NCBI GenBank assembly: GCA_030390025.1
Contig: CM059429.1
Location: 138,508,001-138,572,000, forward strand
Source of the DNA: Squalus acanthias
Taxonomy: Eukaryota
Reading direction: 5' to 3'
Length of the DNA: 64,000 nt
Shown here: positions 14,761-61,526 of the stretch, one piece after another
Layout: each line of letters opens with the position of its first letter
How positions within the stretch are numbered: the stretch's first letter is position 1
The notes under the pieces: generated by a model
What the model was told of the DNA's origin: nothing
The model's database searches: none
What the model saw: only the letters and a program-made list of their open reading frames with translations
Made by a program: the position numbers and the translations under genes

Positions 14761-15264
14761 TACAATAAACAGCTAGATTGACAACCTACCATTTATAATT
14801 TTCTGGCAAATCTTTTTGCACCAGAAACTGTGTGTAAAGATGGAGATGTGTATTTTTGGTTATTCAATAGCTGTAGAGATAAACAGTTGTGAAGATACCT
14901 GAAATCTGAACACCCATTGTGGGACACCTGAGGGCAACTAATAGTTCACAGCAATAGCACCACGTATGATTTGGAAACATTTATGTTTGTAAAATGTCAT
15001 TAGCACCTGTTGGTCCCAATCTGTCGAACCCCTAAAACTTTAGTGCACTGACTTGATGTAAGAGCAGAAAATTTTCGAATCATCTTTTAATGTTACTTTG
15101 CAGTAATGGTTCAGCTTTTTTTTAATAACTATTGTATTGTTTTGGTCTTCATAAGGAGTGCTGTCTATCAAGTACTTAACGTAAGATCATAAGGTAAATA
15201 CTAGTAAGGAAAGCAATTGTGGCCATCCTAGTTCATCCATACAGAAAGGTTCTAAAGTTTCCCC

Positions 15265-15470
15265 GCGTTTCCCACATTACAACAGTGACTACACTTCAAA
15301 AAGTACTTCATTGGCTGTAAAGCGCTTTGAGATGTCCGGTGGTCATGAAAGGCGCTATATAAATGCAAGTCTTTCCTTCTTTCCTTCTTTATTTCTCTTT
15401 CTTTCCCTTTCTTTCTTTTTCTTTCTTTCCCTTTCTTTTTCTCTTTCTATCTCTCTTTCTTTTTCTTTCT
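15265..15470 (+). mobile_element. SacSINE1/Deu-SINE-like 3' end with (CTTT)n-type tail
   Basis: ACATTACAACAGTGACTACACTTCAAAAAGTACTTCATTGGCTGTAAAGCGCTTTG..GAAAGGCGCTATATAAATGCAAGT. Absent from duplication copy 2 (~24495). Confidence 0.75.
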
Positions 15471-16560
15471 ATAATTCCAAGGTTTTCACCTCCCCTACTT
15501 TCTCTCAAAGACCATTCCATGTGTTGATGGCTCTTTGTGTGAAGAAGTACATTTGCCTTTTAGGAGTTTTGTCCTACTCTCACAGGTTAGTTTGAGGTAG
15601 TTTCTCACATCTCTCTTTCCTTACTATTTACTATGTTATAGCCTTCAACATGGTCACCTCTCACACCCTTTCAAGTTTATCATGTCTTTCCTCATCTCTC
15701 AGTTCTTGGACACCAGGGAACAACCTTGTTCTCTGAACTGTCTCCAGGGTTTAAATGCCCCTTGTATCTAGGTGACCAGAATCAGACACAGTACGAAATG
15801 TGGGGTCCGATCAGCACACTGCATTTTGGCTCTATAATTCAGCATTCAATTTGCTTTTCTAATTGCTGCTGATGGTAGGACATATTTAGAATCAAGTCTA
15901 TTAAAACTCCCACATCTCTTTCAATGTCATCCTTATTGTTTTGCAACCATTCATGGGATACTTATGGTATCCATATTTCATGCTATTTACAGTACTTTAC
16001 ACTTGTTGATATTAAATTTCATCTGCCACTGTTCCACCCACTTACGTATTTTGTCCAACTCATTTTGCAGTTCCTGACCTGTCAACACAGATTCAATTGC
16101 CCCTCTAGTTTGGTACCACCTGCAAATCTTACCAATTTCCCCAGCGTTTTTGAATCAAAGTCATTGATGTAAATTAGAATCAGTGGGAAGGGGGAGGGGT
16201 TTATCCCAACACTAGTCCCTGGGGCACAGGTCAGTACTTCTCCCCACCTTGACATAACTCACAGTACCTATTGCTTTCTACCCTTCAACCAATTTCTTAT
16301 CCATTCCCACCATTTACCCTGAATCCCCACTGTTCTAAGCTGGACAGAAAATTTTTATCAAATGCTTTTTAGGCCTACCACCTTGCAATGCTTTCCACAG
16401 TCATCTTGACATATTACTACCTCAAAAAAGGTAAGGACATTGGTCAGTCAGGATCTTCCTCTCCTAACTGTCATTTACTAAATTGTTTTTAGGCAAGAAA
16501 TCCTCAAGTTTGCTCCTTAGAATCAAGTCCATGACTTTACCTGATATTTTTCCTGATTGA
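15470..16560 (-). mobile_element. Old CR1 fragment (also present at ~24520-25500 in the duplicate)
   Basis: Degenerate RT motifs (LIYINDLDS, KF.G.TKL). Confidence 0.7.
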
Positions 16561-16808
16561 AATGCGGCAGAAACAGGTGCTAACGGAGTGGACCAAGAAG
16601 GATAATCTACCATGTTATGACCTCCGAACTTGTATAACCTTGTCACAGAATCTGCAACCTCACTTGGGATTGGCACAGAATTCGCCTTGAAGTACCACAG
16701 AATTCTAAGTTACCTGAGCATAACTGGCTCCTGAAAGGTGCAGCTCAGACATTAACTTTTCTTCTTCAATGCATGTGTAACTATTGGCCCATAATTTGCG
16801 GTCAGCGG

Positions 16809-16965
16809 CAATGTTCCCGTTTAGCTGCATGGCAGTGCAGCTGTCCAACGCTCCAGCGCAGGCCGCTTGCCGGTTCCTGAATGGAAAAACCGCGCGGAAG
16901 TTTGAATGGGCTGCGCAGCCCCTTAAAGGGGCTGCACATCCCCCAAAAAATTACAGGGAACATTG
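16809..16965. mobile_element. 157-bp hAT-type MITE
   Basis: Perfect 10-bp TIR CAATGTTCCC/GGGAACATTG and perfect 8-bp TSD GTCAGCGG (16801-16808, 16966-16973). Confidence 0.85.
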
Positions 16966-17570
16966 GTCAGCGGCAAAGCAAAGGCGCTTGCCTCTGGCCC
17001 TGAAGAAAGCTGCCTACAGAGATCTCACAATCTCTGTGGTGAGATGTTTGCCTTTTTCGACATTCAATTGATTTCAGTGCTCTGTAATGGGAATCCCTAG
17101 TGTGATGCTGCTGTGACATCAACAAGCTGCCTAAGCAGCCAAATACATTACAGAATTCTCACAGACAGGAAACCAAGAAATGAGAAGCTGCTTTTATCCA
17201 GACTTTTAAAAATGTTAAAAAATGTTAATGAAGCAAAGAATGGGACTCTCACAAGGTAGAGCCTGAAATATCATGAACAAACTTTAAAATAAAGTTTTTA
17301 AAAAATTGTAATTTTTATCATAATGGAGAAAGGTGACACTCCACAAATATAAAAATTAGTTTTTCAGGGCCAGAACGTTTGTTTACCAGTCAATACACTG
17401 AAAACCCCAGTTACAGCTATTCCAACAAGGCTTAACATTTAATGGGGTATTTAACAGCGATATTACCATGGAAACGCCCAAGTTTTCATCAGTTTCACTG
17501 ATTACACTGATTGCCAGCTCTGGGGGTATGGAGGATGTTCACAGCACAGCCAGTGTCGGAGCAGTGAATG

Positions 17571-19750
17571 ACAACAACAACAACTTGTATTTTTTTGGCA
17601 CCTTTAACGTAGTAAAACGTCCCAAGGCGCTGCACAGGAGTATTTTAAGACAAAATATTTGACACCGAGCCACATAAGGAGAAATTAGGGCAGGTGACCA
17701 AAAGCTTGGTCAAAGAGGTAGGTTTTAAGGTGCATCTTAAAGGAGGAAAGAGAGGTAGTCACGTGGAGAGGTTTAGGCAGGGAATTCCAGAGCTTAGGGC
17801 CTAGGCAACAGAAGGCACGGCCACCAATGGTTGAGCGATTATAATCAGAGATGTTAAAGAGAGCAGAATTAGAGGAGTGCAGCTATCTCGGGGTGGTTGT
17901 GGGGCTGAAGGAGATTACAGAGATAGGGAGGGGTGAGTCCATTGAGGGATTTGAAAACAAGGATGAGAATTTTGAAATCGAGGCGCTGATTAACCGAGAA
18001 CCAATGTAGGTGAGTGAGCACAGGGGTGATGGGCGAACCAGACTTGGTGCGAGTTAGGACACGGGCAGTTGAGTTTTGGATGACCTCAAGTTTATGTAGG
18101 GTAGAATGTGGGAGGCCAGCCAAGAGTGCGTTGGAATAGTCAAGTCTAGAGGTAACAAAGGCATAGATGAGGGTTTCAGCAGCGGATGAGCTGAGGCAAG
18201 GGAGGAGATGGGTGATGTTATGGTGGTGGAAATAGGCGGTCTTTGTTATGCTGCGGATATGTGGTCAGAAGCTCATTTCAGGGTCAAATTTGACACCAAG
18301 GTTGCGAACAGTGCGGTTCAGCCTCAGACAGATGTTAGGGAGAGGGATGGAGTCAGTGGCTAGGGAACGGAGTTTGTGGTGGGGACCAAAAACAATGGCT
18401 TTGGTCTTCCCAATATTTAATTGGAGAACATTTTTGCTCATCCAGAACTGTATGTCGGACAAGTGGAGGGGTCAAGAGGAGAGGTAGTGAGGTAGAACTG
18501 GGTGTCGTCAGCGTACATGTGGAAACTGACGCTGTGCTTTTGGATGATGTCGCCAAGGGGGCAACATGTAGATGAGAAATAGGAGGGGGCCAAGGATAGA
18601 TCCTTGGGGGACACCAGAGGTAACGATGCAGGAGTAGGAAGAGAAGCCATTGCAGGTGATTCTCTGGCTACAAATAGATAGATAAGAATGGAACCAGGCG
18701 AGTGCAATCCCACCCAGCTGGACGACGGTGGAGAAGGATGGAGTGGTCAACAGTGTCAAAGGCTGCAGACAAGTCAAGAAGGACGAGGAGGGATAGTTTA
18801 CATTTGTCACAGTCACAAAGGATGTCATTTGTGACTTTGATGAGAGCCGTTTCGGTACTGTAGCAAGGGCGGAAACCTGCTTGGAGCGATTCAAACTTGG
18901 AATTGCGGGAAAGATGGGCACGGATTTGGGAGGCGACAACACGTTCAAGGACTTTGGAGAGGAAAGGGAGGTTGGAGATGGGGTGGTAGTTTGCAAAGAT
19001 GGAGGGATCAAGGGTTGATTTTTTGAGTAGAGGGGTGATGAAGGCAGATTTGAGGGAGAGGGGGACAGTACCTGAGGAGAGAGAACCGTTAACAACATCG
19101 GCTAACATGGGAGCCAGAAAAGGAAGTTGGGTGGTCAGCAGTTTGGTGGGAATAGGAGGGAGCAGGAGGTGGGTCTCATGGACAAGATGAGCACAGAGAG
19201 GTCATGAGGGGAGATCGGAGAGAAACTGGAGAAAGATGTGAGTTCAGGGCTAGGGCAGGGGGAAACCTTAGAGGAAGTTTGGCCTGGTGGGCTAGGGGAA
19301 GGAAGGGAAGTGGCAGAGGCAGAGGCAGCTGAACGGATGGTCTTAATCTTAGAGACAAAGAAGTCCATGAGCTCCTCACACTTGTTATCAGAGGTGAGGG
19401 TGGAGGAGACAGAAGAGAGGAGTTTAAGAAGATGGTTTGCAGTGAAGAATAGAAGCCGGGGTTTATCTTTGCATTCCTGAATGATTCTGGAATAGTGAGC
19501 AATTTTGGCAGATGAGAGCAGGACCTGATAATGCTTTATGTGGTCCAGCCAAATCTGGCGGTGAATGGCTAAACCAGTTGTCCGCCATATCTGTTCAAGT
19601 CTGCGTCCCTTGGACTTAAGGGAGTGAAGATGAGAGCCGCGACAGGAGGAACGGCCAGGATGAGAGGGTAGTTGTTTTAGTAGGGTCCAGGGCATCAAAG
19701 GTGGTGGTGAGGGTGTGGTCGAGCAGATCGGTAGCTGCAGAAATGTCATG
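17571..19750 (-). mobile_element. L2 LINE, 5'-truncated and frameshifted
   Basis: RT motifs LLDLSAAFDTVDH, GVPQGSILGPLLFLIY, HMYADDTQ; (GTT)n 3' tail; GTGAATG at both ends (17564-17570, 19751-19757). Confidence 0.9.
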
Positions 19751-20001
19751 GTGAATGGAGCTGATTTCAATTTAAGGATTTCCATGTTAGGATGCGGGTG
19801 CGCTACATCCTGAAGTTGCGGTCAGTTTCAGAGGGGTAATGACGGCAAATGCTGTTGGTTCGCTGTCACTACCCACCGTAAATTCCGGGCCATCCTAATT
19901 TCAGCAAAAGCAAATACCTCGGCATCTGGAAATCTGAAATAAACACAGAAAATGCTGGAAACAGCAGGTCAGGCTGTAGAGAGAATGCTGCCGGACGATT
20001 G

Positions 20002-20022
20002 TTTCAGTTTCGTTTCTCTTTC
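20002..20022 (-). promoter_or_regulatory. Multimeric ISRE/IRF-E (copy 1)
   Basis: TTTCAGTTTCGTTTCTCTTTC reads GAAA-GA-GAAA-C-GAAA-CT-GAAA on the minus strand, four GAAA cores in IRF spacing. Confidence 0.7.
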
Positions 20023-20379
20023 TGAAAGTGCGCAGTTTCTAATTCACTCACTTGGGTCAAGATGCATTGGTAAGAAAGAATACATTTCTCATATGTATTT
20101 GATCACTGGCATTTTAAACTCATATGGAGTAAATTCTGCGCCTGAAGTACAAGATGGACTCACTCATGTATATTTATGTGATTAATTACACAAACGTTAT
20201 GATAAATCCCACGATTCGATGTCCAGTCAGTAAAATTTAAATATTCAAGTAATTCTGACTTTTAAAATATCTATTTTATGATGAATGCATTAAAACCTGC
20301 CGATTCCTACAGTGAAATAGTGTATCGGGCCTTAAAGCGGGATTGTAGGTCAGTGTGGTTTAATGCGAGGTCGTGTTCA

Positions 20380-20443
20380 CAACCTGTCGAGCTTCCCTCT
20401 GCCTCGCTACAAGTGACGGAGCTGAAAGGCGGCGTTTAATAGG
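20380..20443 (+). promoter_or_regulatory. Candidate MHC class I-type SXY module (copy 1)
   Basis: CAACCT - 16 nt - CCTCGCTACAAG - TGACG - 20 nt - ATAGG. Order and spacing match HLA-A/B promoters as I recall them (CAACCT-N16-CCWGGATACTCR-TGACG-N20-ATTGG). The Y box has one mismatch. Confidence 0.6.
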
Positions 20444-20464
20444 CGCTTCAACTCAGCTCTGAGC

Positions 20465-20563
20465 AAACTCCGCAGTGAGCTCCCAGATTCTGCGTTGCTG
20501 TTTGTGCCGAGCGGAGGATTGTCCAGTGTTCCGCACCGAAACTGAACGACATTGATCAGTAAT
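20465..20563 (+). other. Candidate non-coding first exon 1a of the Ig-superfamily gene (start approximate)
   Basis: Follows the SXY-like module and ends at the donor-like AAT|GTACGT (GT at 20564-20565). Confidence 0.45.
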
Positions 20564-21019
20564 GTACGTTTGTATTCAATGTTCTTGTAACTATAATTCT
20601 AGTTGAATACAAATGTGATCTGTTTATTGATATGAAACAGTCCGTCAAGCAGACTAACTTTATTTGATTGTGAGTGGTGACGTTATGCATGTAGAACTAT
20701 ATATACAGTTAATGCGAATTAATAATATATTAAGAAAGTATTTAATTTAATTGTAAATATAACAAACATGTTAAAGGCATTTTAGAACCTCCTGAAGAAT
20801 GCTTCATGGCAGTGGAAGGCCTTATATAGAAATTACAGCCTGGAAACAGGCCCTTCGGCCCAAGCAATCCATGTTGGTGTTTCTGTCCCACAGGAGCAGT
20901 GGCCTTAATCCCTTGTGCCGGCTGTTTCTGTCGATACTGTTCCATCCCTTAATAACTTTAACCACCTCTATCAAATCCCAGTATAATCTTCACTTCTGAT
21001 GAGAACAGCCTCAATTTTA

Positions 21020-22020
21020 TGTAGTTACATAGTATTTACAGCGCAGAAACAAGCCATTCGGCCCAACTAGTCAATGCAAGTGTTTATGCTCCACACGAGC
21101 CTCCTCTCTCACTACTTCATCTAACCCCATCAACATATCTTTCTATTCCTTTCTCCCTCAGGCTTCCCCTTATATTCATCTTTGTTGTTCGCCTCAACTT
21201 GCTTGTAGTAGCGAGTTCCACATTCTAACCACTCTCTGGGTAAAGAATTATCTCCTGAATTCTTTATTGGATTTATTAGTGACTGTCTTATATTTATGGC
21301 CCCTAGTTCTGGTTGTCCCCGCAAGTGGAAACATCTTCTCTACGTCTGCCCTATCAACCCTTTTCATAATCTTAAAGACCTCTATCAGCAGGTAACATAA
21401 AAGGAAACCCCTCAATTTCCTCTTTCCTTGAGAAAAGAGCCCCAATCTGTTCAGTTTTTCCTGATAATTATAACCTCTCAGTTTTTTCAACTTTCTCCAG
21501 TGCCTCTATATACTTTTTGTAATAAGGAGACCAGAACTGTGCACAGTACTCCGTGTGGTCTAACCAAGGTTCTATATAAATTTAACATAACTTCTTTACT
21601 TTTCAATTCTATCCCTCTAGAAATAAACCCTCGTGTTTGGTTTGATTTTTTATGGCCTATTGACCTGCGTCACAACTTTTAGTGATTTAAGTATTTGTAC
21701 TCCCAGATCCCTTTGCTCCACTACCCCATTTAGATTCTGATTTCTACATAATATGTGTCCTCCTTATTTTTCTTACCAATATGTAATACCTCACACTTAA
21801 CTATGTTGAAATTCATTTGGCGATTATATGCCTATTCTGTACATTCATTAATGTCTTCCTGTAATTTGTTGCAGTCCTCCTATCCCTCCCAATTTAGAAA
21901 TTGTGTTTTTGATTCCAAAGTCTAAATCGTTAAAATAAATTGTGAACAACAGTGGTCCCAGCACTGATCCCACTTCCCACCACCTGCCACTCTGAATAGC
22001 TATCCTTTACCCTTACTCTC
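21020..22020 (-). mobile_element. CR1 LINE 3' fragment
   Basis: NYQEKLNRLGLFS..LIEVFKIMK..RTRGHKYK peptide and CR1 3' UTR. Confidence 0.8.
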
Positions 22021-22024
22021 TGCT

Positions 22025-22120
22025 AGGGTGTGGGACTAATCTGTACAGCTCTTTCGAAGAGCCGGCACAGGCACGACGGGCTGAATGGCCCCCTTCTGTG
22101 CTGTAACATTATATGATTCT
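22025..22120 (+). mobile_element. CR1 3' tail at the junction between the duplicated units
   Basis: GAAGAGCCGGCACAGGCACGACGGGCTGAATGGCC..TGTGCTGTAAC..TATGATTCT, the same tail type as 28270-28325. Confidence 0.7.
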
Positions 22121-22283
22121 AAGTATAAAAGGCACTGAAACAGGCTGAGAGTGTATCTAATGAAGGTAGGAAGAAGAAAGGAGCATATTCAATTGAGTTA
22201 GTGCATGGAAAATATAGCTTCCTGTAGGGAGACCTAGATTAGTGGAGAGAGTTCAGTCCTGTCCAAGAGGGATGAATTTTAAT

Positions 22284-23400
22284 CACATAAGAATTAGGAG
22301 CAGGAGTAGGCTATATGGCCTTTTGAACCTGCTCCGCCATTCAATAAGATCATGGCTGATCTTCGACCTCAACTCCACTTTCCCGCCCGCTCCCCATATC
22401 CCTTGATTCCCCAAGAGTCCAAAAATCCATCTATCTCAGCCTTGAATATACTCAATGACTCAGCATCCACAGCCCTTTGGGGTAGAGAATTCCAAAGATT
22501 CACAACCCTCCAGGTGAAGAAATTCTTCCTCATCTCAGTCATAAATGGCCGACCCCTATTCTGAGACTATGTCCCCTAGTTCTAGACTCTCCAGCCAGGG
22601 GAAACAACCTCTCAGCATCCACCCTGTCAATTCCCCTCAGAATCCTGTATGTTTCAATGAGACCACCTCTCATTCTTCTAAACTCCAGAGAGTATAGGCT
22701 CAATCTCTCCTCATAGGACAACCCTTTCATCCCAGGAATCAATGTAGTGAACCTTCGTTGCACCGCCTCTAAGGCATGTATGTCCTTTCCCAAATAAGGA
22801 GATCAAAACTGTGCACAATACTCTAGATGTGGTCTCACCAAAGCCCTGTACAATTGTAGTAAGACTTCCTTACTCTTGTACTCCAACCCCCTTGCAATAA
22901 AGGCCAACATGCCATTTGCCTTCCTAGTTGCTTGCTGTACCTGCATGCTAACTTTCTGTGTACGAGGACACCTAAATCTCTCTGAACACCAACATTTAAT
23001 AGTTTCTCACCATTTAAAAAATAGTCTGTTTTTCTATTCTTCCTACCAAAGTGGATAACCTCACATTTCCCCACATTATACTGCATCTGCCACCTTACTG
23101 CCCACTCACTTAACCTGTCTATATCCCTTTGCAGGCTCTTTGTGTCCTCACTGCTTACTTTCCCACCTAATTTTGTATTGTCAGCAAACTTGGATATATT
23201 GCACTCGGTCCCTTCATCTAAGTCATTTATATAGATTGTAAATAGGCCCAAGCACTGATCCATGCGGCACCCCATTAGTTACAGCCTGCTAACCGAAAAA
23301 TGACCCATTTATTTCTACTCTCTGTTTTCTGCCCATTAACCAATCCTCTATCCAAGCTAGTATATTACCCCCAACCCCATGAGCCCTTATCTTGTGTAGT
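22284..23400 (-). mobile_element. CR1 LINE inserted after the duplication (copy 2 only)
   Basis: FTIYINDLDEG..SKFADNTKLGG and YSLEFRRMRG peptides. It interrupts sequence that is contiguous in copy 1 near 11065. Confidence 0.85.
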
Positions 23401-25645
23401 AATTCTGTTGAACCCATTACTTTCAGTGAGCTGGGACATTGGAATAAACCAGTACAGAACTGAAGAGGTTTATATTGAACCCCCTTCCAAAGGGAAGTTA
23501 GTACCTCCTAGAGGTAGGAGTTACAGTACCTACAGGATAGAGTTTAAGGGTGCTGGCTTCTACCAGAAGCAGAAGCTACAATACCAGCAGCACAGAACTA
23601 AGGAACTCTATTTCTGTGCATTTAATGGTTTTTAACTTCCATCTAGAGCATCTAAGCCTTGTGCCTGCAGAGATCAGGCTTGGTTTCTATCTCTGTGTCT
23701 GCTGCGGTTTTAATATGGATATAAGAGAATCATGGTAATAATGGAAGACCTATGGATTGCAGCATGAGTTAGTAAAAAGGAGAATATAGGGTCGGTGAGG
23801 CAACTAGGTGAGGATTTCAAAATTATGATCGAGAAAATAAGGAGAAACTGTTGCCACTGGCAGGAGGGTCGGCAACCAGAGGACACAGATTTAAGATAAT
23901 TGGCAAAAAAAAGGGGCGACGAGAAGACATTTTTGTATGCAATGAGTTTTTATGATCCAGAATGCACTGCCTGTAAGGGTGGTGAAAGCAGATTAAATAG
24001 TAACTTTTAAAGGGAATTGGACATATACCTGAAGTCAGTGGAAATAAAAACCAGGAGAGATGTAAAACAGGCTGTAAAACAAATTATTTTGTTTTTTAAC
24101 CAAGGTCCTTCTGGGGTCAGATACCTGAAATCTGAACACCCATTGTGGGACACCTGAGAGCAACTAATAGTCCATAGCAACAGCACCATGTGTGCTTTTG
24201 GAAACATTTGTGTTTGTATTATGTCATTAGCACCTGTTGCACCCCATCTATTGAATCCCTAAAACTTTAGTACACTGACTTGATGTAAGAGCAGAAAATG
24301 GAAAATGTTTTTCAGAATCATCTTTTAATGTTGCTTTTCTGTAATGGTTCAGCTTTTTTATAACTATTGTATTTGGTCTTCATAAGGAGTGCTGTCTATC
24401 GGGAACTTAACGTAAAATCATTAGGTAAATACTAGTAAGGAAAGCAATTGTGGCCATCCTAGTTCATCCATACAGAAAGCTTTTAAAGTTTCCCCATTGC
24501 AGCATTCAATTTTTTCTTTAAATAATTCCAAAGTTTTCACCTCCCCTACTTTCTCTCAAAGACTATTCCATGTGTTGATGGCTCTTTGTGTGAAGAAGTA
24601 CATTTGCCTTTTAGGAGTTTGATTGCACCCTCTTTTCCTACTCTCACAGGTTAGTTTGCGGTAATTACTCACATCTATCTTTTCTTACTATTTACTATGT
24701 TATAGCCTTCAGCAAGGTCAATTCTCAGACTCTTTCAAGGTCAACAAGCCTTAGTTTATCAAGTCGTTTCTCATCTCTCAGTCCTTGAACACCAGAGAAC
24801 AACTTTGTTCTCTGAACTGTCTCCAGGGTTTTAAGGCCCCTTATATCTAAGTGACCAGGTCCAGACACAGTATGAAATATGGGGTCTGTTGAGAACACTA
24901 CATTTTGGCTCTTTCATTCAGCATTCAATTTGCTTTGCTGATTGCTGCTTAAGATTGGGAGTTCAACCCACTTACATATTTTGTCCAACTCATTTTGTAG
25001 TTCCCAACCCGTCCAAACAGATTCAATTGCCCCTCCTAGTTTGGTACCACCTGCAAATCTTACCAATTTCCCCAGCGTTTTTGAATCCAAGTCATTGATG
25101 TAAATTAGAATCAGTGGGAAGAGGGGTTCCCAAAACTCGTCCCTGGGGTACTGGTCAGTACTTCTCGCCACCTTGACATAACTCAGAACCTACTGTTCCC
25201 TACCCTTCAACCGGTTTCTTATCCATTGCCACCATTTACCCTTAATCCCCACTGTTCTAAGCTAAACAGAAGAATTTTGTCCAATGCTTTTTAGACATCT
25301 AGTCCTACCACTCTGGAATGATTTCCACTATCCTCTTGATATATTACTACCCCCAAAAAGTTAAGGACATTAGTCAGTCAGGATCTTCCTCTTTTGAATC
25401 TGTGCTGATTGCCGTTTACTATTTGTTACCGTGCAAGAAATCCTCAAGTTTACTCCTTTAGAATCAATTCCATTATTTTATCGGATGTTTTTCCTGATTG
25501 GAATGCGGGAGAAACAAGTGCTGACGGGGTGGACCAATGAGGAAAATTTAGCATGTTAAGAGCCACGAAGTGAATTTCAGGTACGGGGGTGGGGCGGATC
25601 GTGGGCCCGAATGCTGCCTGCCCATTGCAGTATTTTCTATTCAAA

Positions 25646-25666
25646 TTTCAGTTTCGTTTCTCTTTC
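25646..25666 (-). promoter_or_regulatory. Multimeric ISRE/IRF-E (copy 2)
   Basis: Identical to 20002-20022. Confidence 0.7.
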
Positions 25667-26015
25667 TGAAAGTGCGCAGTTTCTAATTCACTCACTTGGG
25701 TCAAGATGCATTGGTAAGAAAGAATAAATTTCTCATATGTATTTGACCACAGGCATATTAAACTCATATGGAGTAAATTCTGCGCCTGAAGTACAATATG
25801 GACTCACTCATGTATATTTATGTGATTAATTACACAAACATTATGATAAATTCGCTGTCCTGTCAGTAAAATTTAAATATTCAAGTAATTCTGACTTTTA
25901 AAATATCTATTTTATGATGAATGCATTCAATCCTGCCGATTCCTACAGTGAAATAGTGTATCGGGCCTTAAAGCGGGATTGTAGGTCAGTGTGGTTTAAT
26001 GCGAGGTCGTGTTCA

Positions 26016-26079
26016 CAACCTGTCGAGCTTCCCTCTGCCTCGCTACAAGTGACGGAGCTGAAAGGCGGCGTTTAATAGG
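26016..26079 (+). promoter_or_regulatory. Candidate MHC class I-type SXY module (copy 2)
   Basis: Identical to 20380-20443. Confidence 0.6.
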
Positions 26080-26099
26080 CGCTTCAACTCAGCTCTGAG

Positions 26100-26184
26100 C
26101 AAACTCCGCAGTGAGCTCCCAGCTTGTGTGTTGCTGTTTGTGCCGAGCGGAGGATTGTCCAGTGTTCCGAGATTGATCAGTAAT
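26100..26184 (+). other. Candidate non-coding first exon 1b (start approximate)
   Basis: Duplicate of exon 1a with a short internal deletion; donor-like AAT|GTACGT (GT at 26185-26186). Confidence 0.45.
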
Positions 26185-26694
26185 GTACGTTTGTATTCAA
26201 TGTTTTTCAGTAATTCTAGTTGAATACAAATGTGATCTGTTTATTGATATGAAACAGTCCGTCAAGCAGAATAACTTTATTTGATTGTGCGTGGTGACGT
26301 TATGCATATAGAACTATCTATATAGTTAATGCGAATTAATATATTTATTAAGAAACTATTTAATTGTGAATAGAAGAAACATGTTGAAGGCAATTTAGAA
26401 CCTCCCGAAGAATGCGTCATGGCAGTGGAAGGCCTTATATAGGATTTAAAGCCTGGGAACAGGCCCTTCGGCCCAAGCAATCCATGTTGGTGTTTCTGCC
26501 CCACAGGCCCAGTGGTCTTAATCCCTTGTGCAGTCTGTTTCTGCCGATTCTGTTCCATCCCTTAATAACTTTAAGACCCAAAATCAAATCCCAGTGTAAT
26601 AAACCCTTTCATAATCTTCAAGACCTCTTATCAGACCACCCCTCACCTTTTTTTCTAGAGAAAAGAGCCCCAGCCTGTTCAATCTTTCCTGATA

Positions 26695-27071
26695 CTCAGT
26701 GTGTGCAAAGAGGTGAAGCAGTGTGGTGGTGGGGGTGGAGAAGGGGCGGATCAGTGTGTGTAGGGCGAGGGGCGGGTGAGTGTGTGTGTGGGGACGGGCA
26801 GGTCAGTGTGTGGGTGGAGAGTTGGATTAGTGTGGGGGAGGAGGGGCGGGTCAGTGTGTGTGGGGGGACGGGCAGGTCAGTGTGGGTGGAGAGTTGGATT
26901 AGTGTGGGGGAGGAGGGGCGGGTCAGTGTGTGTGGGGGGACGGGCAGGTCAGTGTGTGGGTGGAGAGTTGGATTAGTGTGGGGGAGGAGGGGCAGGTCAG
27001 TGTGGGTGGAGAGTTGGATTAGTGTGGGGGAGGAGGGGCGGGTCAGTGTGTGTGGGGGGAGAGGTGCAGGC

Positions 27072-27116
<45 letters not shown>

Positions 27117-27200
27117 GGGGGGGGGGCAGGTCAAAGTGTTGGGTGGAGGGGCAGGTCAATGTGTGGTGTTGGGGTTGGTCCGTATGGGGGGTAGGGTGGG
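26695..27200. repeat. GT/G-rich compound minisatellite including (GT)n at ~27074-27113
   Basis: Repeated GTCAGTGTG(TG)GGTGGAGAGTTGGATTAGTGTGGGGGAGGAGGGGC units. Confidence 0.9.
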
Positions 27201-27659
27201 ACAGTTCAGCGCAGGACTGGCTCTCCACAAAGGGCACGGGATTGTTTGGGATTCTCACAGAAAAAGGGGGTGCTGATAATACAGTGTTATTCATGGGGGG
27301 GACTTGGGAAATCTCACCATTTCCCATATAGCCAGTTCTCCCCTGTTTGTATTTCCTCCTACCTGACAGCATCATAGTGAATCTGTGCTGTGCCCTCTCT
27401 ACTGCCTCAACATCCTTTCAGTAGTTTGGAGCTCAAAACCATACACAGTACTCCAACTGTGGTCTGATTAAGGTTTTGTATAGATTCACCATTAAACCCT
27501 GATTTCTATATACCTGTAACTATTGCCATAAAACCCAGGATTCCATTAACTTTTTTGTGGCCATATCCACTTGAGGTGCTGCTTTTAATGTCTTGTGAAC
27601 CTGAACCGTAAATCCACATCACCCAGCTTTCCCCAGTTCAAAGTAGCATGAACAGAGAG

Positions 27660-28325
27660 TTCTAGAGGTGTATATGTGAACAAATCGTTGAAGGTGGCAG
27701 GGCAGGTTGAGAAAGCGGTTAAAAAAGCTAATGGGATCCTGGGCTATATGAATAGAGGTATAGAGTACAAAAGCGTGGAAATTATGATGAACCTTTATAA
27801 AACACTGGTTCGACCTCAACTGGAGTATTGTGTCCAATTCTGGGCACCGCACTTTAGGAAAGATGTGAAAGCCTTGGAGAGGATGCAGAAAAGATTTACA
27901 AGAATGATTCCAGGAATGAGTGACTTCAGTTACGTGGATAGACTGGAGAGGCTGGGGTTGTTCTCCTTAGAGCAGAGAAGATTGAGAGGAGATTTGATCG
28001 AGGTGATCAGAATCATGAGGGGTCTAGACAGAGTAGTTAGAGAGAAACTGTTCCAATTGGCAGAAAGGTCAAGAACCAGAGGAAACCGATTTAAGGTGAT
28101 TGGCAGAAGAGGAAAAACCTTTTTACTCAGCGAGTGGTTAGGATCTGGAATGCACTGCCTGAAAGGGTGGTGGAGGCAGACTCAATCACGGCTTTCAAAA
28201 GGGAGTTGAATAAGTACCTGAAGGAAAAAAAATTGCAGGCTACGGGGAAAGGGCTGAAGTGCTCTTGCAGAGAGCCGGCACGGGCTCGAATGGCCGCCTT
28301 TTGTGCTGTAACTATTCTATGATTA
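27660..28325 (+). mobile_element. CR1 LINE 3' end inserted into an older minus-strand CR1 (~27370-28640)
   Basis: KKANGILGY..LVRPQLEYCVQFWAPH..RLRGDLIEV peptide and ATTCTATGATT tail. Confidence 0.85.
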
Positions 28326-28660
28326 TTACTTTTCTTTATGAAAATGTACCACTTCACATTTGTTGACACTGAATTCCATCTGCCACTATTTTGCACATTG
28401 CACCATCTTTTCAGTATGTTCTTGTAGCTTCCTTTGGTCCTCAGAAATATTTTCTGTGCCTCCTATTTTAATATCATCTGCAAATTTGGACAACACTCCC
28501 TCCAGTTCTATATCCGAATCATTGATGTACAAGTGAGCATAAGCGGTGGCATAACTGAACCCTGTGGGGCATCATTACCCACTTCCAACCATTTGGAAAC
28601 TGCCCTTAACTCTTACTCTCAGTTTCCTCCCTTCTAACCAGTCATTCATTCTTTTTCAGG

Positions 28661-28709
28661 ATGCCGTCACTGCGCTGTCTGGTACTTTGCTTGCTGTTTA
28701 TTCATGGTG
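28661..28709 (+). CDS. B7/butyrophilin-like Ig gene, signal-peptide exon (MPSLRCLVLCLLFIHG, phase 1)
   Basis: Acceptor TTCTTTTTCAG before 28660, donor G|GTAAGT at 28710, hydrophobic leader; phase matches the IgV exon. Confidence 0.8.
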
Positions 28710-30479
28710 GTAAGTTCTTTTCCTTCCTTTGCGGGATTTTTAAAAATAATTCATTTGAGCATTTAAAGCCCATGAATAAACTTAAATGAAGATTAAATGC
28801 AAATATCAATGTAACAGATACTGGATACATAAATAATATGAAATTTAATTTCCCCTTTGTTCAAACAAGTATCCACTTTTATTTTCTCCTTAATTGTGAC
28901 TTGATAACAAGAAGCCGAGTGTGGTGGATTTTAGAGGCGTGATTTCATACAATGTGATTTTTTTTTTAGTGGGACCAACAATCGTGGCTCGCCTGTATTG
29001 ATGAAGCTTTAATTCTTCTCAAGCAAAAAATGACCCACTTAACTGATGCATTTGATGAAATATTTGGTTATCCAACTGTGGTGTATGCAATTTTTTGTGA
29101 AAAGTTTGAGCAGGAGGTTCAAAAAGCTCAAGAACAATCCTGTCCAAACCCCCAAGCCCATGAAAGCCAAACAAAACAAACCAGCAACTAACAAGTACAA
29201 GTGCAAATAAAACAAAGTTCTTGTCTTTCATGAGCTGGATGCCATGTGCTGCAGAGCACGTGGCTCATGGGCCATAGCTTGCACGCTCTTCTTCGACAAT
29301 CTCAATATTAAATGTGCGAGCAATGCTTACACCATAATAAATTGGATTTGGGAACAGGTGCCTGAAAATATGCTGATTTCATTTGCGAGAAGTGGATATT
29401 TTAGCGGACAAAGAGTGTGGCAGGAAGTTAGCAAAATGAGTATGGAGTCTTCAATTAGGAACATGAAAGAAAATTTGTGACATAAAATACTGTGCACAAG
29501 TAAATGTGATACCACCAACCAGTGGGAGATACTATTACATACGATACCCTTGTTCCCTTTCCTTGTTCACTGCCCTTAATAAGCCACATAGGCTCCCAGT
29601 TGCTATGGTTAATGGTGCACCTCACAGTCTGGGGTTCACGTTCTGCCGTGCTGTGGTGTAAAGCTACCCCACCAGGGATGTTCTGCTGCCAATCTGGCAG
29701 GACACTGGGCAGAATGAAACGGAGAGGAAATATTCAAAGATTACCAGCTTTTTAATCAGTGCAGAAATGCAAAGAAAAGAAATGATTAAGAACGTAGATA
29801 TCTACCAATCTAAATTTATCTCTGATAAAATTTACTGCAAAGCTGCCACCATAACTTATTAGTTACTGAGTCATGGTTGAGAAGTTGAAAGTTTCTGGAG
29901 AAGGAATTGATTGATTATTGTATAAATTATTGCTCAGACTTGCTTTCCTCAACTGAAATGCTAAATATAACCAAACTTGGTTGAAACAGCACTCACAAAA
30001 TTAAAAATTCTTAAGTGGACTTAAATTACATTTAATTTAAGAAAGGAAGGGCAGAATTCAAAGATGACTTTAAAGGGTACGTTTTCCATGTGCTCTTGGC
30101 ACAGAGGCTAACCCGCCAGCAGCACATGTTGTGAAATCAGGTACATAGCCCATGATTGTCTATTCGTTTTAATGGATGGAAAATTCATGGGCTGTGCATA
30201 CACGATTTCATGGTATGTACCAGGAGCATGCAATCTCAAAATCTACACCCAAAAGAAACACATTTCCATTCAGCCCCACCAACAAAACATTAGCTAGACT
30301 AACCAATGAGTAGAAGAGCCTTTGTATAGTGTTGCAGATTTCTGTCGGACTGGATGTTATCTGCTGCTGCTTAAAATCAATCAGCAAAAACAATCTGAAT
30401 TCAGAGAAATCCATCGATTTTGGATACAAGTAATGCACCTGACAGAATAAATCTTGGATATTTGCTAACTGTCTGCTGC

Positions 30480-30600
30480 GGTATTCAGCGTTGGCTCAGG
30501 GTAACATTCTCGCCTCATTGTCACATGTCTCTAGGATTTGAGCACATATCCTAGACTGACACTTCAGTGCAGTATTGAGGAGTACTGCATTATCAGGGAT
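30480..30600 (+). mobile_element. SacSINE1-like 5' fragment
   Basis: tRNA-like head TGGCTCAG.GGT followed by CTGACACTTCAGTGCAGTATTGAGGAGTACTGCA. Confidence 0.5.
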
Positions 30601-31954
30601 CCTGGTGGCAATCTTGGATTCCGCCCAAAACAGTGGTGAAGTCGATGGAGTGGCCGCACTGCCCACCCAAAGCTGGCGTCGGAAAGCCCAAACTGGTTTC
30701 GGATTGGGTTCCATTTAAATGTCGCCAGTGAGTTGCGGGCACCAAATATTCAGTCAGATAAAAAAAGATTTCAGTGGCTTCATGTATAGCTGTCAGACTG
30801 TGCTGTTTGTGGTTTTCTAGTCTATTTTCAGCATAGGGCCAAATCACACTTGGTAGAAACCTAGGAAACAATTTGAATTTAAAATGACCTTCCTATCGTA
30901 TTCCTATTTTGTTGTTGGTTTTGTTATTGGATCTTAAAAAGTCACATTGGTCAGTGTAGAACAGCAGACCTATGCTGACAATAGACTAGAAAATAAATTA
31001 AGTGAAGATATTGGGCTGTTACAACCACAAACAGCACAGTCTGACAATATCAGAGAGGTAGGACGTCAGTTTATGATTTTGTACAGTGAGGGGCATAGCA
31101 AAGTGGAGGCCAGTTGTTTCCTCTCCGATGAATAGCCACCTAGTGCTCTTATTTCTGATCGAACAGTCAGATCCAGAAGATAAGGTCTGGGAACAATGCA
31201 TCCCACAAAGGATGAAAAATGAGGGGAGAAAATCAAAGTTAAAAAGGAGCCATGCCACTCCTTGTTGTTTGTTACACTATGGAATGTAGGGGAACCGGGT
31301 TGGCAGCCAGTTAAATTGGAGTGGGGGACTTACCCACTCTGTTCCCGCACTCTGGCCCACTGCAATTTTAAATGGCAAGTGGCAAGGACACCCGCTCAAA
31401 GCCAGCAGGGTCCTTTTTAAATAAGCAGATTGGGCTCCGATGATGTCATTGGGGCCCAGCTGCTATTTTTACCTGAGGCCTGAACAGGGGAGCAGTGGTG
31501 ACTTCCCCGCCAGGCACAGGAACAAGGGCCGGATGAGACCTGTCCTGTGAATTTGTCTTTCAAGTGGACTTTTGTGTCTTACTGAAAACCTCTAAATGTA
31601 AATTCAGGTGAAACACTGGGGTGTTACAGCTCCAGAAACAACAAATTAGACATGAAGATATTGGAAATTTACAGTAGGCTCAGATTTTTATAAAAATATT
31701 CAGGTACTTACCAACAATTTACAAAAGCTGGGAAATTCCTCGGCGCTCATCCTACTCTGTTGCTGTGCCTTCACCAAAAGTGAGGTGGAAACCAGCTCTG
31801 AGGAATTTCCCGGCCATAATCTACCCATTTTATGATACTTGTTTTGTAAACGATAGAAAAACTAATCTGGACAGAAGTTAATATTAATATATATTTATAT
31901 GAATATTTGTTGAAGGTTTTATTTGTAACTGCATTATTTCCATTCCTTATTCAG

Positions 31955-32296
31955 AAACGTTAACTGTTTCCTCTGATCAGACCACTGCTGCAGAGATTGG
32001 CCAACCTGTCACCCTCAAGTGTACATTTGACAGCGTTCGCGACAGTAATCCTACAGTGGTCTGGGAGAAGAAAGGTGTGGAGGGAACCGTGCACAAGTAC
32101 AAGGGAAATGAGCATGACTTCAGCAAACAGCATGTCAACTACACGGGAAGAACTGTAGTTGATGGAAACTCAATCAACAAAGGAGACGCAGCCCTTACAC
32201 TGAAGAATGTTAACATCTGGGATGAAGGAACTTACAAGTGCAGTGTCAGCGCTAGCAATGGATACGATGCAGCATCTGTGAATCTGAAGGTTTGGG
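31955..32296 (+). CDS. B7/butyrophilin-like Ig gene, IgV-set exon
   Basis: 342 nt, phase 1-1, CAG|...G|GTATGT. Peptide ETLTVSS..VTLKCTF..VVWEK..VHKY..YTGRT..GDAALTLKNVNIWDEGTYKCSV..VNLKVW has the canonical C-W-DxGxYxC V-set signature and the B7/BTN GDAALxL motif. Confidence 0.92.
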
Positions 32297-33399
32297 GTAT
32301 GTCAGCTGTCCTGTTCTCTGTCTGCAGTCAGGGTCAAGTGTAGCTCGGTTTCATTTCTTTTATTATGACATACATTTCCAATGGCACCAGAGAAAAGAAC
32401 AATTTTCATTTCATTTACTTGTTAACAAAGTTTGTTATAGAAAGACAATAATAATGGCTTCTCACATGGAACGTTGAGCTATACAGCAATGAGAATATAC
32501 GCCATGAATTTCTATGGGGTTCTCCTGATCTCCTGCGGTAAGAGCGGCGATTATGCTATGTTTCCACCGAAGCTGCATCGGGAGATCGGGACACCGCTGC
32601 TGAAATTCTACCCCATAGTGTTTAGATGATGCAATTGTCAAACTTTAGCCCGTGCAGAGGTAGGGATTCGAACAATAACACAACTCTGTAATGATGATGA
32701 TAAATGTATCCCTGATCCATTTGCAGCATTGCCTCAGGAGAGAAGCATTGTAAATACGGGGTGGGGTAGGGGGGGTAGAATTTATGCTGGGGTTCTCCTG
32801 ATCTTCTGTTTCGGTGAACGCTCAGCGGAAACCCCAGAGAAATGACATAAATGGCAATTCTACTGCAAATGGAAAAATACTTCGAAATAATTCTGAAAAG
32901 AGAAAAGACAGAACAATGTTTTGGCCAGGGTGCTTCTCCAGATTTGGTAAATGAAAGATAAACATTTTAATTGAACTGAATAAAGGGGAGGGGCAGACAA
33001 AACCAAACCAATGGATACTTCAGCATAGAGAGGACATCATTGGTTGCTGGCCTATAATTTGCATGAAAGAAAAGCAGGGGATTGGTAGCTGATGTAAAAG
33101 ATCATGTTAGTCAGTCAATAGACCAAAACATTAAGGATGTGTTTATTCACAACACCGAAAGCTCTGATTGGTCCCCTTAGATAACAAGTCCTGATTGCTG
33201 ATTGGGACAAGACATACCCAGCAGTTTCTCTGGAATGTGAAATTAGATCCTCCCTGCCTACGTAATCAGTTACTTTACAAACTGTAATTCGAGCCATTCT
33301 GACTGCCTACTCCAGACAGAACAGAGCTCACTTGGAACAGACAGGGCTCACCCTCGCGGGTTAACACCTTCTCCACCCCACAAACAAGCTCCTGCCTCC

Positions 33400-34595: not shown

Positions 34596-35368
34596 TGAAG
34601 TGGCGAGGATCGCACCTGTCAAGGTGCTTGCCTAATTTTTGGTCCATTTAAATTAATAGAAGGAAAATCACAATGGCTCCCTCACAGGTGTGCCATTCTC
34701 CCTACCTGATTTTCTTTTCCGCACTGCGTCCAGGCAAATTTAATACCTCAGGAACAGGAAAATCTGCCAAATGGTCCTTTAAAATCAACATAAAAAGAAA
34801 AAGTGACATTTTATGGATTTATTCAAATTAGAAACGTCATGAAAAAGAAACACAAGAAAACAATGGCCGGAATTTTCATGCTGCCGTGCATGCGGGATTG
34901 GAGGCGGGTCAGGAGTAAAATTTGCAATAAATGGGAGCATGTCGGGACCCTGACATCATCCCGCCTCCTCGCGACTTGATCTCAGGCGTGTTTGCTGGCG
35001 TGGCACGGACCAGAACGGCAGAGGCGGGCAACCTAATTTAACTCATTAATACCTTGTTGTCAGACCCTTAACTGTTTTTAACCAGACCTTTTAAATTTAA
35101 CTGCATGACCAGGGGAATCGCGCAGCTTGTGAACCATGTCTGTCAACCTGAGGAGGACGTTCAGTGACCATTGATCGAGGTCATTACTGCAGAGCATGGA
35201 AAGCACAATAAATACTGCCACTGCTTACTTGCCTAAAGGAAAGGCTCTTGCTGAGTGTATTTTGAGCACAGATTTTGCAAGTCTTTTCTGCAAATTCAGA
35301 AGCCACTCTCACCGCATTACTCCTAACTATCACTGATCTCTACTTGACCTGCCATCTATTACATCAGC

Positions 35369-36575
35369 ATGGGTGCCGTTTGTACTGTCTCACCTTGGTC
35401 CTCAGAATCGGACCAGGATGAGCTCCAACACCAGCAGCAGCAACCGCAACAGCACCAACAACCTTCTCCTCAATGACCTGATGCTCCACAGGACAGAGGG
35501 TATCAGCACAGGGCTGCACCGCGCAGGAGGCGATATCCCCAATACAGGGTATACCGGCAGAGGATGAGCTTCCTCAACATGACTGAGCAGCAGTGCCAAA
35601 GGAGGCTCAGGCTATCGTGCCAGGTCATTGCAGGCATTTGCAGGTTGCTGGAACAAGACTTGCAGCCCAAAGGACCTGGTAGACGCACCTTACCAGTGGT
35701 TGACAAAGTCACCACCGCCCTCAACTCCTTTGCCTCGGGCTTCTTCCAGGGATCTGCAGCAGACATTTGTGGCATGTCGCAGTCGGCCGCCCACAGATGC
35801 TTCACCCAGGTCACCGATGCCATGTTTGACAAGTCAGCCAATTATATCAACTTTGCCACTGATGAAGCCAGAGTTACTGAGCGGGCGCTCGGCTTTGTGG
35901 CTCTGGCTGGCTTCCCACGGGTGCAGGGCGTCATCGACTGCACACGTGGCCATCAGGGCACCCCATCATCACCCAGGAGTGTTTGTAAACCGCAAGGGCT
36001 TCCACTCCGTCAATGTGCAGCTGGTCTGCAACCAAAGGTAGATTCTCATGCATGTGTGCGCCAGATTCCCTAGCAACTGTCTTGACTCTTTCGTCTTGCG
36101 CCAGGCCATCCTCCCTCAGCTCTTCACTCCACAAAATACACTTGCTGGCTGCTTGGAGATGAGGGCTATCCACTGAAGACGTGGCTCATGACACCCTTGA
36201 GGAGGCCAAGTACTGAGGCCGAGAATAAATATAATGAAAGCCACATGTCCACCCGATGTGTCATAGAGCAGACAATAGGCATGCTGAAAATGCGCTTCAG
36301 ATGCCTTGACAGATCTGGAGGAGCCCTTCAGTACACACCAGCCAGGGTCTCCAGAATCGTCGTTGTCTGCTGTGCGCTGCACAACATAGCGCAGCAGCGA
36401 GGATTAGCGCTGCATGAGGAGCAAGGCGCAGAGCGCACAGCCTCTTCGGAGGAGGAGAAAGAAGAGGAGCCTCAGCTGGAAGATGAGGAGGAGCAGGAGG
36501 AACCTGAGGTCCAGATGCCAGCAGCACCCGAGCACGTTGCTGCCGGGAGGCCAGGAATGGCCTCATTGTGGCCAG
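35369..36575 (+). pseudogene. Harbinger DDE transposase (HARBI1-like), with stop and frameshifts
   Basis: [48 protein letters not shown] and CCALHN motifs are split over frames. Confidence 0.9.
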
Positions 36576-36818
36576 ATTTACTTAAGTTCCTGCATTACAC
36601 CTATATGGCTGCCACATGCTGCGCCAGGTTCTCCACCCGTCCCCCCCGACCACAACAATACCATAAAGCATCCCTACAATGACCAAGCCATTCCTTTCAC
36701 ACTGACCCCCATTGCTGGAGGTAACGTTATGTCTCACCATTCACTGCAACTCACTAAACCACTTCTAAAGTAGGAGACATAAATGGGCATGACCTGAAAG
36801 TGGTGAAAATAAATAGTT

Positions 36819-38888: not shown

Positions 38889-39170
38889 GTGCTGCTGATA
38901 TCTATATCTCATGGAAGTCTGATGAAACTGGTGCTGAAGTGCTGTCTTGCCACTCTTCAGGGTGGTACCCAGCCCCAACGATTAACTGGAGTGACGCATC
39001 TGGTAACGATTTGAACAAGGATTGTAAAGCAACCCTGACGGCAGACAACAATGGATTATTGAATGTGTCATATGACCTAAAACAACAGCATAACTCGAAG
39101 AATCAGTATATCTGCTCCATGAAGCATAAGTGGATGGCAGAGCCTAAGCGTATTCGAGTAGCATTCTCAG
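38889..39170 (+). CDS. B7/butyrophilin-like Ig gene, IgC exon
   Basis: 282 nt, phase 1-1, TTTGCAAAAG|...G|GTGAGT. VLSCHSSGWYPAPTINWSD..GLLNVSYDL..YICSMKH is the C-x-S-x-GWYP-x-P-x-I-x-W signature of B7/BTN C domains. Confidence 0.92.
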
Positions 39171-40481: not shown

Positions 40482-40534
40482 ATGGGGGAACCATGATTCG
40501 TTTAGATGATGGAAAAAAATTGTCAGATTTATAA
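40482..40534 (+). CDS. B7/butyrophilin-like Ig gene, predicted terminal exon (DGGTMIRLDDGKKLSDL*)
   Basis: Strong acceptor TTTATATTTCCTTTATTTTCAG, phase-1 compatible, stop TAA at 40532-40534, AATAAA at 40847-40852. Confidence 0.65.
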
Positions 40535-41864
40535 ATCAAAAGCTGTGTTGCCTTTGGAGCGTGTAAATAATTTCTCCGAATAATTCTTCGATGCTCATTA
40601 TGGATTGCAAAGCTTTTCCAGAAGAAAACCTGTGGCTTATAGATCTAGGGATGGGCAATAAATGCTGGTCTTGCCAGCAACACACCCATCCATGGATGCT
40701 GCCTGACCTGCTGAGTATTTCCAGCATTTTCTGTCTTCTCAGAGGTCATCCTTTACCATCCGATCCAAGGCCTTGGAACTGTCCAGCTGCACTCCCTGTA
40801 CACTTTTCAAAAAAAAAAGTTAACATTTATAGCACCAAGCCACTTCAATAAAATAAAAAAATCCAGTCCAAAAGTTTAAATAAGAAGTGCACACTCGTTT
40901 CAGAGCGAGCTTAGGACTCAGCGCTAAGGTCGAAGTTTGCAGAGTGTGATGGTAATCGGCATTGCACGCTGACTGACGTCACACTCTCCCTATTTGCATC
41001 TCCAGAGCCAGCACTGCCATTGGCAGTACTAAGGCCCTCGCCAAAATAGCGGCCACCGAGTCCCGTGCCATTTGTTGTCCGGATTCCAGCACTAACGGGT
41101 GGTGGTAAGTAGCCCAATTTCTGGGTCTTGTAAATCTGAAGTTAATTGCATTGAACATTGCAGACACAAGCCTTTGTCTCAACACTTCAGATGAATAGAA
41201 GATGCCCTGTAACCTGTAAATCATTCTATAGAATGTTCAAAGTTTATATTTGTAATTGCCTGTAGGTGCTTCTGTAATAGGATTTTTCCATTTAGAACAC
41301 TTCGCTCTGTCAAATTTTCCCTGTCACACAACTCCTGTGATCCTGTGTAATTCCCCTAATTAAAAATACTTTGTCTGAATCGGCAAGCAGGCTCTGGCCA
41401 GCAGCTGGTGTTGTGGAGCAGATTAGTCAACCATCATCTGAAAACTTAAGATCTGCCATTTTTTCCAGTAACAGATTTCTTTTGTCTAAAATAAGGATTT
41501 AAAAATGAAAGTATAATTCACCTCTCTTTAGTTGATGCTTCACTATAACATGATTAAATTTATCCATTGAATTGTATTTTAAGGCTTTCAATAAAGTTTT
41601 TTCTTAAAGTCCTCAGGTTCTTTCAAAGGCTTGGGCTTAAGCTTGCTGTTTTTCCCAGAGCAGTGACTCTGTGAGCTGTATTTGGATTGTGCAGTCTGAG
41701 CATGAGCATTGTACCTAATTCCCCAGATACATCAGTACCCTTCAGTCAGTTGTAGTAATGGAATGTTTTTCTTAAGTTTCTAGCAGTAGATTTTCTTAAA
41801 ATAACTTTGAAAAACAAGCACAAATTTCAAAAGCTTTATTGAGGGAAGTTTTTATTGAACAGAG

Positions 41865-52995: not shown

Positions 52996-53036
52996 AATTA
53001 CAAGCTTTCGGAGCTGTCGCCCCTTCGTCAGGCAAA
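52996..53036 (-). ncRNA. Minimal type I hammerhead ribozyme motif in the Penelope 3' pLTR
   Basis: UUGC-CUGACGA-A-GGGGC-GACA-GCUCC-GAAA-GCU-U-GUAA: conserved cores, stem II hairpin, palindromic AAGCUU stem III, stem I UUGC/GUAA. Confidence 0.8.
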
Positions 53037-55316: not shown

Positions 55317-55354
55317 TGACCTGACGAAGGAGCAGCCGCTCCGAAAGCTTGTGA
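55317..55354 (+). ncRNA. Second hammerhead motif in the inverted pLTR copy
   Basis: AC-CUGACGA-A-GGAGC-AGCC-GCUCC-GAAA-GCU-U-GUGA; stem I is shortened by the inversion junction. Confidence 0.7.
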
Positions 55355-57800: not shown

Positions 57801-57821
57801 CTGGGACTCCCCCTATCGGTT

Positions 57822-61524: not shown

Positions 61525-61526
61525 AT

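Follow-up and report, generated by a model that had tools for sequence, protein, structure and literature searches.

Ahead of a non-coding first exon in the window (the whole stretch of 64,000 nt of Squalus acanthias DNA analysed here) lies an imperfect copy of the MHC class I promoter module, and we think it rather probable, judging from sequence, that this is an NLRC5-type SXY promoter by which a likely VTCN1/B7-H4 gene would be co-regulated with MHC I. Because this copy stands before its first exon, the gene, likely the counterpart of the immune-dampening B7-H4, is likely switched on together with antigen presentation. Judged by its letters alone, the module is weak and marginal and borders on what chance could produce; its location at a real first exon goes far beyond that.

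Composition of the module

The module at positions 20380-20443 reads CAACCT, 16 nt, CCTCGCTACAAG, TGACG, 20 nt, ATAGG, with the boxes in the order S, X1, X2, Y and with a 16-nt S-X and an about 20-nt X-Y spacing. A sequence-only reading of the window had reported these four boxes and both spacers, together with an X1 that diverges and a Y with one mismatch, and we reproduced all of its coordinates and letters, the divergence being a C at position 4 of X1 and the mismatch the ATAGG of Y. The module at 26016-26079 is letter for letter the same.

20380..20385, plus strand: S box CAACCT, class I type, copy 1; the same hexamer stands at the shark class I promoters L018 and L107
20402..20413, plus strand: X1 box, predicted RFX site, divergent; position 4 is C, where the shark modules have A or G
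20414..20418, plus strand: X2 box TGACG, predicted CREB/ATF half site, exact; identical in H2-K and HLA-B
20439..20443, plus strand: Y box ATAGG, predicted weak NF-Y site; one mismatch to ATTGG
26016..26079, plus strand: second SXY module, identical to the first; within intron 1 of the copy-1 transcript

The S box of HLA-A/B is CAACCT. As the HLA-A/B S box, this hexamer has 0 occurrences in PMC7922096. The S box of the window module is of the AACCT type, as in shark class I and H2-K and unlike shark class II alpha, and the class II S box with its 19-nt X2-Y spacer (H2-Eb, shark class II alpha) is absent from the module. Shifts of 1-4 nt in the S-X spacer lower the matrix score from 27 to 5-16, and the score has its maximum only at spacers of 16 nt (S-X) and 20 nt (X2-Y).

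The imperfections lie in X1 and Y. A purine (A/G) is present at the divergent X1 position in 6/6 of the shark training groups, where the window module has C, and the X region reaches 10.5 bits with this one conserved purine absent. The Y box is not an intact ATTGG/CCAAT, no other CCAAT occurs within 370 nt of the module, and a TATA-like TTTAAT at 20435 overlaps ATAGG; single-mismatch Y boxes are also present among other shark matches (ATTGC, ATTTG). This box is the main weakness of the NLRC5 reading, since an intact CCAAT is required at BTN3A, where breaking it abolishes NLRC5 transactivation according to the available part of PMC7753138, and since ATAGG may belong to the TATA-like TTTAAT.

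A somewhat unlikely alternative starts from the same box and takes the module to be partial, with RFX and CREB/ATF on X1-X2, IRFs at the ISRE-like run upstream, no NF-Y site in ATAGG, TTTAAT serving as a TATA box, and either CIITA or no coactivator. The Y mismatch and its overlap with TTTAAT agree with this, as do BTN2A1, which depends on RFX and hardly on NLRC5 (PMC7753138, in its available part), and H2-T10/T22, which are without a Y at 20-22 bp (PMC4374748, likewise in part). However, an exact class I-type S box of 9.6 bits at exactly 16 nt would then have no reason for its retention, and the TTA flank before Y, common to the window module and the shark modules L029 and L096, also argues against a partial module.

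SXY modules at the MHC and B2M genes of the shark

The sequence-only reading had called the module SXY-like with class I spacing and had proposed a comparison with shark MHC I and B2M promoters. That comparison bears it out: the S box and the 20-nt X2-Y spacer are those of the shark's own class I and B2M genes, which have the same S-N16-X1-X2-N20-Y layout with an AACCT-type S, and not those of class II alpha. Two tandem modules of H2-K geometry precede the leader exon of the class I gene L018, other class I loci have X-20-Y, and B2M (L134) has S-16-X-20-Y before its leader with an AACCT-type S, whereas both class II alpha loci have X-19-Y and no AACCT. By locus, the 19-nt X2-Y spacer without AACCT is found at L069:3975 and L071:4334 (class II alpha) and the 20-nt spacer with an AACCT-type S at L018, L107 and L134, a split that parallels the one between mouse H2-Eb and H2-K. 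Of the first 20 upstream stretches of class I loci, 6 contain a module; this count leaves out a seventh row (22-nt spacer, opposite strand), and further modules lie farther out. The genome contains one NLRC5-type atypical CARD; a search of the genome for the MHC class II beta family returned nothing and is uninformative.

Several other modules were observed in passing. Class I promoters with two tandem SXY modules 104 nt apart are found at L018:5346-5513 and L110-L113, and the first of the two modules has an ISRE-like 10-mer 23 nt ahead of it. At least eight near-perfect class I-type modules are clustered in 22 kb at G000:C3487:136420-157799 (L089-L093, L101-L103, L147), between class I loci and with no exon identified adjoining; this cluster may represent distal MHC enhancers. 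Strong SXY modules of 34-48 bits also lie at L130:777 (C2422), L129 (C324), L138:413 (C3861) and L131:549 (C3751), and their sequences make them candidates for further NLRC5-type targets. A Pfam search of 97 of the 235 frames behind seven SXY hits found no gene behind L129, L130, L131, L137, L138 and L142, and B2M was the only one identified.

Genome scan and look-alike sequences

The scan pattern was drawn from the H2-K, H2-Eb, HLA-B and shark class I promoters and allowed up to two mismatches, a level chosen in the knowledge that the window passes. It matched the 3.7-Gb genome 58 times, against 12 for the reversed control, with 35 matches on three MHC-gene contigs, 18 scattered, 3 unassigned and 2 in the window; the MHC contigs hold 22 of the 25 matches with 0-1 mismatch, and the window module needs two. 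A weight matrix trained on 22 MHC-contig modules in 6 groups, with the window excluded, gives the window module 26.7 bits (S 9.6, X 10.5, Y 6.6). Leave-one-out scores (29-42) and the scores of 15 rescored MHC-contig or unassigned modules (34.2-50.0) all lie above this value, and the best of the 18 scattered matches reaches 26.6. Per position p is 6e-10, and one genome should contain about 5 equally good matches by chance; within a given 200-nt strand p is 1.3e-7, which amounts by arithmetic to a chance of about 0.003 over an assumed 25,000 promoters.

The sequence-only reading had judged the arrangement unlikely by chance and had asked for the background rate in the genome. For the sequence alone that judgement is borderline, given about 5 expected matches per genome; for the position at a first exon, at 1.3e-7 per 200-nt strand, it holds.

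Without the S box, the X1-X2-Y pattern has 239 matches in the genome against 9 in the control, and among the 100 matches listed about 95, by eye, are an 860-bp element. X-Y look-alikes alone mean little in this genome because this abundant element carries them. The element is non-coding and about 860 bp long, with 14-bp terminal inverted repeats (L039-L068; 27 of 30 loci) and a near-perfect X1-X2-N21-Y look-alike without an S box; it is likely Harbinger-type and, from its sequence, could seed RFX/CREB/NF-Y sites across the genome. A related piece lies in the window at 47535-48719. The probability that the module is a relic of this element is next to negligible: the many X1-X2-Y matches speak for it, but the 30 loci have no BLAST match to 20380 or 26016, the element lacks an S box and has a 21-nt spacer and a score of at most 16.5, and the promoter DNA exists in only 2 copies in the whole genome, both in the window. 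A transposon origin of the module is largely refuted, the element being unalignable to it. At 52554-61826 the window also contains an LTR element whose 300-nt end repeats are 98% identical and whose minus strand has frames resembling gag, protease, RT and integrase.

First exon, tandem duplication and promoter context

A GT..AG joint from 20563 to 28660 is present in a contig of run X5 at depth 736 (contigs placed on 19900-32400), and the first base of this contig is inferred from record positions to be 20496, 52 nt past the Y box. The window module lies upstream of, and in the same sense as, this inferred start, and copy 1 fronts a real non-coding first exon because the spliced contig begins 52 nt behind its Y box. 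The leader-to-IgV joint occurs in contigs of X5 and X1, and neither joint in the other two runs compared. The RNA nature of X5 is a guess (8 of 13 runs were guessed to be RNA, and none is labelled as such) that is supported by the GT-AG joints; the contigs give neither the true transcription start nor the expression level. A contig of a related organism spans 20147-20578 with 25 differing letters in total over the whole interval.

14893..26600, no strand: tandem duplication (14893-20987 vs 24119-26600) that includes the upstream region, the promoter and exon 1
20002..20022, plus strand: ISRE-like run with four TTTC cores, copy 1; 378-358 nt upstream of S
20496..20563, plus strand: non-coding exon 1, copy 1; 68 nt from record positions and bin depth, 5' end not defined
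25646..25666, plus strand: ISRE-like run, copy 2; duplicate of copy 1
26156..26184, plus strand: possible alternative non-coding exon 1; donor GTACGT kept, weak hint from X1

Both modules belong to one tandem duplication (20002-20987 vs 25646-26600, 92% identical), in which upstream blocks (14893-16628 vs 24119-25569) are 83-88% identical and the first unit is broken by some 3.4 kb of sequence containing a reverse transcriptase fragment. The identical copy at 26016-26079 listed by the sequence-only reading is there, but since both copies are one tandem duplication, it carries no independent evidence for the motif. There is a weak hint that copy 2 may serve as an alternative promoter: a contig of X1 has 29 unplaced 5' letters, with depth 0 at copy 1 and, in the bin that covers the exon end of copy 2, a depth of 24.8 against 25 expected.

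The duplicates show 55 differences, none of them within 20296-20486. This is the longest stretch free of differences (191 nt), and for a run of that length P is 0.0003 under uniform placement; for the 64-nt module alone P is 0.022. Gene conversion between the duplicates could also explain this run. It bears on the highly improbable possibility that an ancestral SXY module has lost its importance here and is decaying, for which the X1 and Y mismatches and the lowest score among the candidate true modules can be cited; against it stand the 191 nt without change, while the neighbouring duplicated blocks differ by 8-17%.

The module also differs from the scattered matches in its surroundings. Its CpG o/e reaches 1.08, with three ISRE core pairs upstream of it, whereas CpG o/e is near 1 in 1/18 of the scattered matches and more than one ISRE pair is found in 0/18; an ISRE pair is present at 5 of the 11 other module loci examined, namely four class I loci and B2M. 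The ISRE-like run begins with the same 10-nt element that is placed 23 nt ahead of the S box at shark class I, although here about 360 nt separate the run from the module. The window has three such four-core runs, two of them the duplicate copies, and no GAS or kB site was found in 19950-20570.

Chance is unlikely because of the position, the CpG richness, the four-core ISRE-like run and the mutation-free 191 nt between the duplicates. We regard it as very unlikely that the promoter in the window is just a common CpG-rich one, having a CRE half site and a TATA-like box, in which S, X1 and Y are fortuitous resemblances. The number of equal scores expected per genome, the existence of the 18 scattered matches and the fixing of the mismatch level after the window was seen all lend themselves to that explanation, but the estimates of about 1e-7 for a given 200 nt and about 0.003 over the assumed promoters do not, nor do the spacer-shift peak and the membership of the gene in the B7/BTN family.

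The gene behind the module

28660..28709, plus strand: leader exon, ATG at 28661; from splice joints
31955..32296, plus strand: IgV exon; Pfam, best solved-structure match human VTCN1/B7-H4 (4gos, E 5e-18)
38889..39170, plus strand: IgC exon, butyrophilin-type C2-set_3; Pfam, splice sites inferred
40482..40674, plus strand: last exon, inferred; 17 polar residues, stop at 40534, AATAAA at 40657

The gene encodes 241 residues of IgV-IgC structure with no internal stop and no hydrophobic stretch past the leader, and the 896-nt length of the X1 contig is, by arithmetic, consistent with a transcript end near 40674. The best matches of the IgC exon are butyrophilins, with no VTCN1 chain among those matches; three shark proteins named VTCN1(-like), of 240-242 aa, are identical to the encoded protein at 145-155 of about 244 residues. 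Each of the four shark proteins has a polar C-terminal tail. A C-terminal membrane anchor is absent, the maximum 19-residue hydropathy after residue 25 being 0.47 (0.89-1.10 in the three relatives, also without an anchor), and from its sequence the product is predicted to be secreted. Human B7-H4, in contrast, is membrane-anchored.

The gene is single-copy in the genome, with nearest relatives 36% identical. Upstream, some 52 kb from the module, a filamin-domain exon lies at C5:138.476 Mb; downstream follow a glycosyl hydrolase 47 gene at 138.84-138.91 Mb (about 0.3 Mb away) and a TENT5 gene at 139.23 Mb (about 0.7 Mb away). This order, with the neighbours matched by domain only, agrees with that of human 1p13, which the available part of PMC9394163 gives as TRIM45, VTCN1, MAN1A2, FAM46C; the four genes are likewise clustered in salmon (PMC13752854, in part). 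Sequence and neighbours together indicate that the gene is likely the shark VTCN1/B7-H4 orthologue. Near the module, a Pfam search of 181 of the 189 frames of at least 55 aa in 7300-33400, and of 81 longer frames elsewhere, found no other host gene, and the controlled gene is likely neither MHC nor butyrophilin but this orthologue.

Some further features of the locus and its relatives can be recorded. The IgC acceptor seems to have moved 6 nt downstream, in frame (window 38883-38889), and the three shark relatives have two extra residues at the V-C junction, matching the 6 nt before the usable AG. The IgV-IgC intron contains remains of a Harbinger-type transposon (35336-38368; DDE_Tnp_4 and Myb/SANT domains). 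A large cluster of IgV exons at G000:C26:0.02-7.6 Mb, 27-36% identical to the shark VTCN1-like gene, probably represents an expanded B7/butyrophilin-like family. In 18 10-kb stretches near 9 B7/BTN-like paralogues (including the C26 cluster), whose promoters may fall outside these stretches, no module exceeded a score of 8.4.

Proposed regulation and its implications

On the NLRC5 reading that we favour, RFX on X1, CREB/ATF on X2 and, weakly, NF-Y on the ATAGG of Y would form a binding platform, which would recruit NLRC5, rather than CIITA, through the AACCT-type S box; the assignment of RFX, CREB, NF-Y and IRF to these elements follows the available parts of PMC7753138, PMC7922096 and PMC7281430. 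IRFs on the upstream ISRE-like run would add an interferon response, and production of a B7-family protein, predicted to be secreted, would go along with that of MHC class I and beta-2-microglobulin.

SXY modules form a well-known class, with examples at butyrophilins too. The novelty lies in the target, which is a likely B7-H4 orthologue and not part of the MHC, and in the evidence from within one shark genome that class I and class II modules are distinct types. Our literature search, outside which most subscription journals fell, returned nothing connecting VTCN1 with RFX5 and NLRC5 and no account of shark SXY modules. The NLRC5 target list, in the available parts of PMC4374748 and PMC7753138, is very short and almost wholly MHC-linked, and if the reading is true, the NLRC5 regulon extends to a checkpoint-type ligand on another chromosome. 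The module suggests a function for an unstudied shark protein for which secretion is predicted. In addition, a usable set of shark SXY modules is now at hand (class I, B2M, class II alpha and clustered distal copies), and with the class I/class II split in S box and spacer already present in a cartilaginous fish, the age of the NLRC5-versus-CIITA specificity becomes testable.

A more far-reaching proposal, which we hold to be unlikely, is that secreted shark B7-H4 is a true non-MHC target of NLRC5 whose module descends from a proto-MHC B7/butyrophilin ancestor. If so, SXY control of B7-type genes would be at least as old as the duplication that separated this region from the MHC, it would have been kept in sharks and in mammalian BTN genes and lost from mammalian VTCN1, and antigen display would be coupled to the release of a soluble T-cell brake.

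Comparison with mammalian systems

The closest likeness is to the NLRC5-bound module of MHC class I, B2m, Tap1 and Psmb9, as described in the available part of PMC4374748. The mouse H2-K construct in that study reads TAACCT, 16, 12-nt X1, TGACG, 20, ATTGG, and H2-Eb has a different S and a 19-nt spacer; the S box determines NLRC5 specificity there, and the 12 promoter targets are all MHC-linked or B2m. The HLA-B X1-X2 letters occur in a primer in PMC9878486. The shark module shares with these class I modules the S-X1-X2-Y order, the 16- and 20-nt spacers, an AACCT-type S, an exact TGACG, a place upstream of the first exon and an ISRE-like element upstream. It differs from them in its Y (ATAGG), in a pyrimidine at position 4 of X1 and in an ISRE-like run 360 nt off, and its gene is located away from the MHC and does not belong to the antigen-presentation genes.

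The butyrophilins provide the second comparison, since NLRC5 and CIITA act on butyrophilin genes through SXY modules (PMC7753138, in its available part). BTN3A1-3 (NLRC5) and BTN2A2 (CIITA) likewise have SXY at a B7-related, non-MHC gene of IgV-IgC structure, but the BTN genes adjoin the MHC, and BTN3A has an inverted CCAAT 13 bp from X. The shark gene, by contrast, combines the classical geometry of the module with a product that has no membrane anchor and with the TRIM45-VTCN1-MAN1A2-FAM46C neighbourhood.
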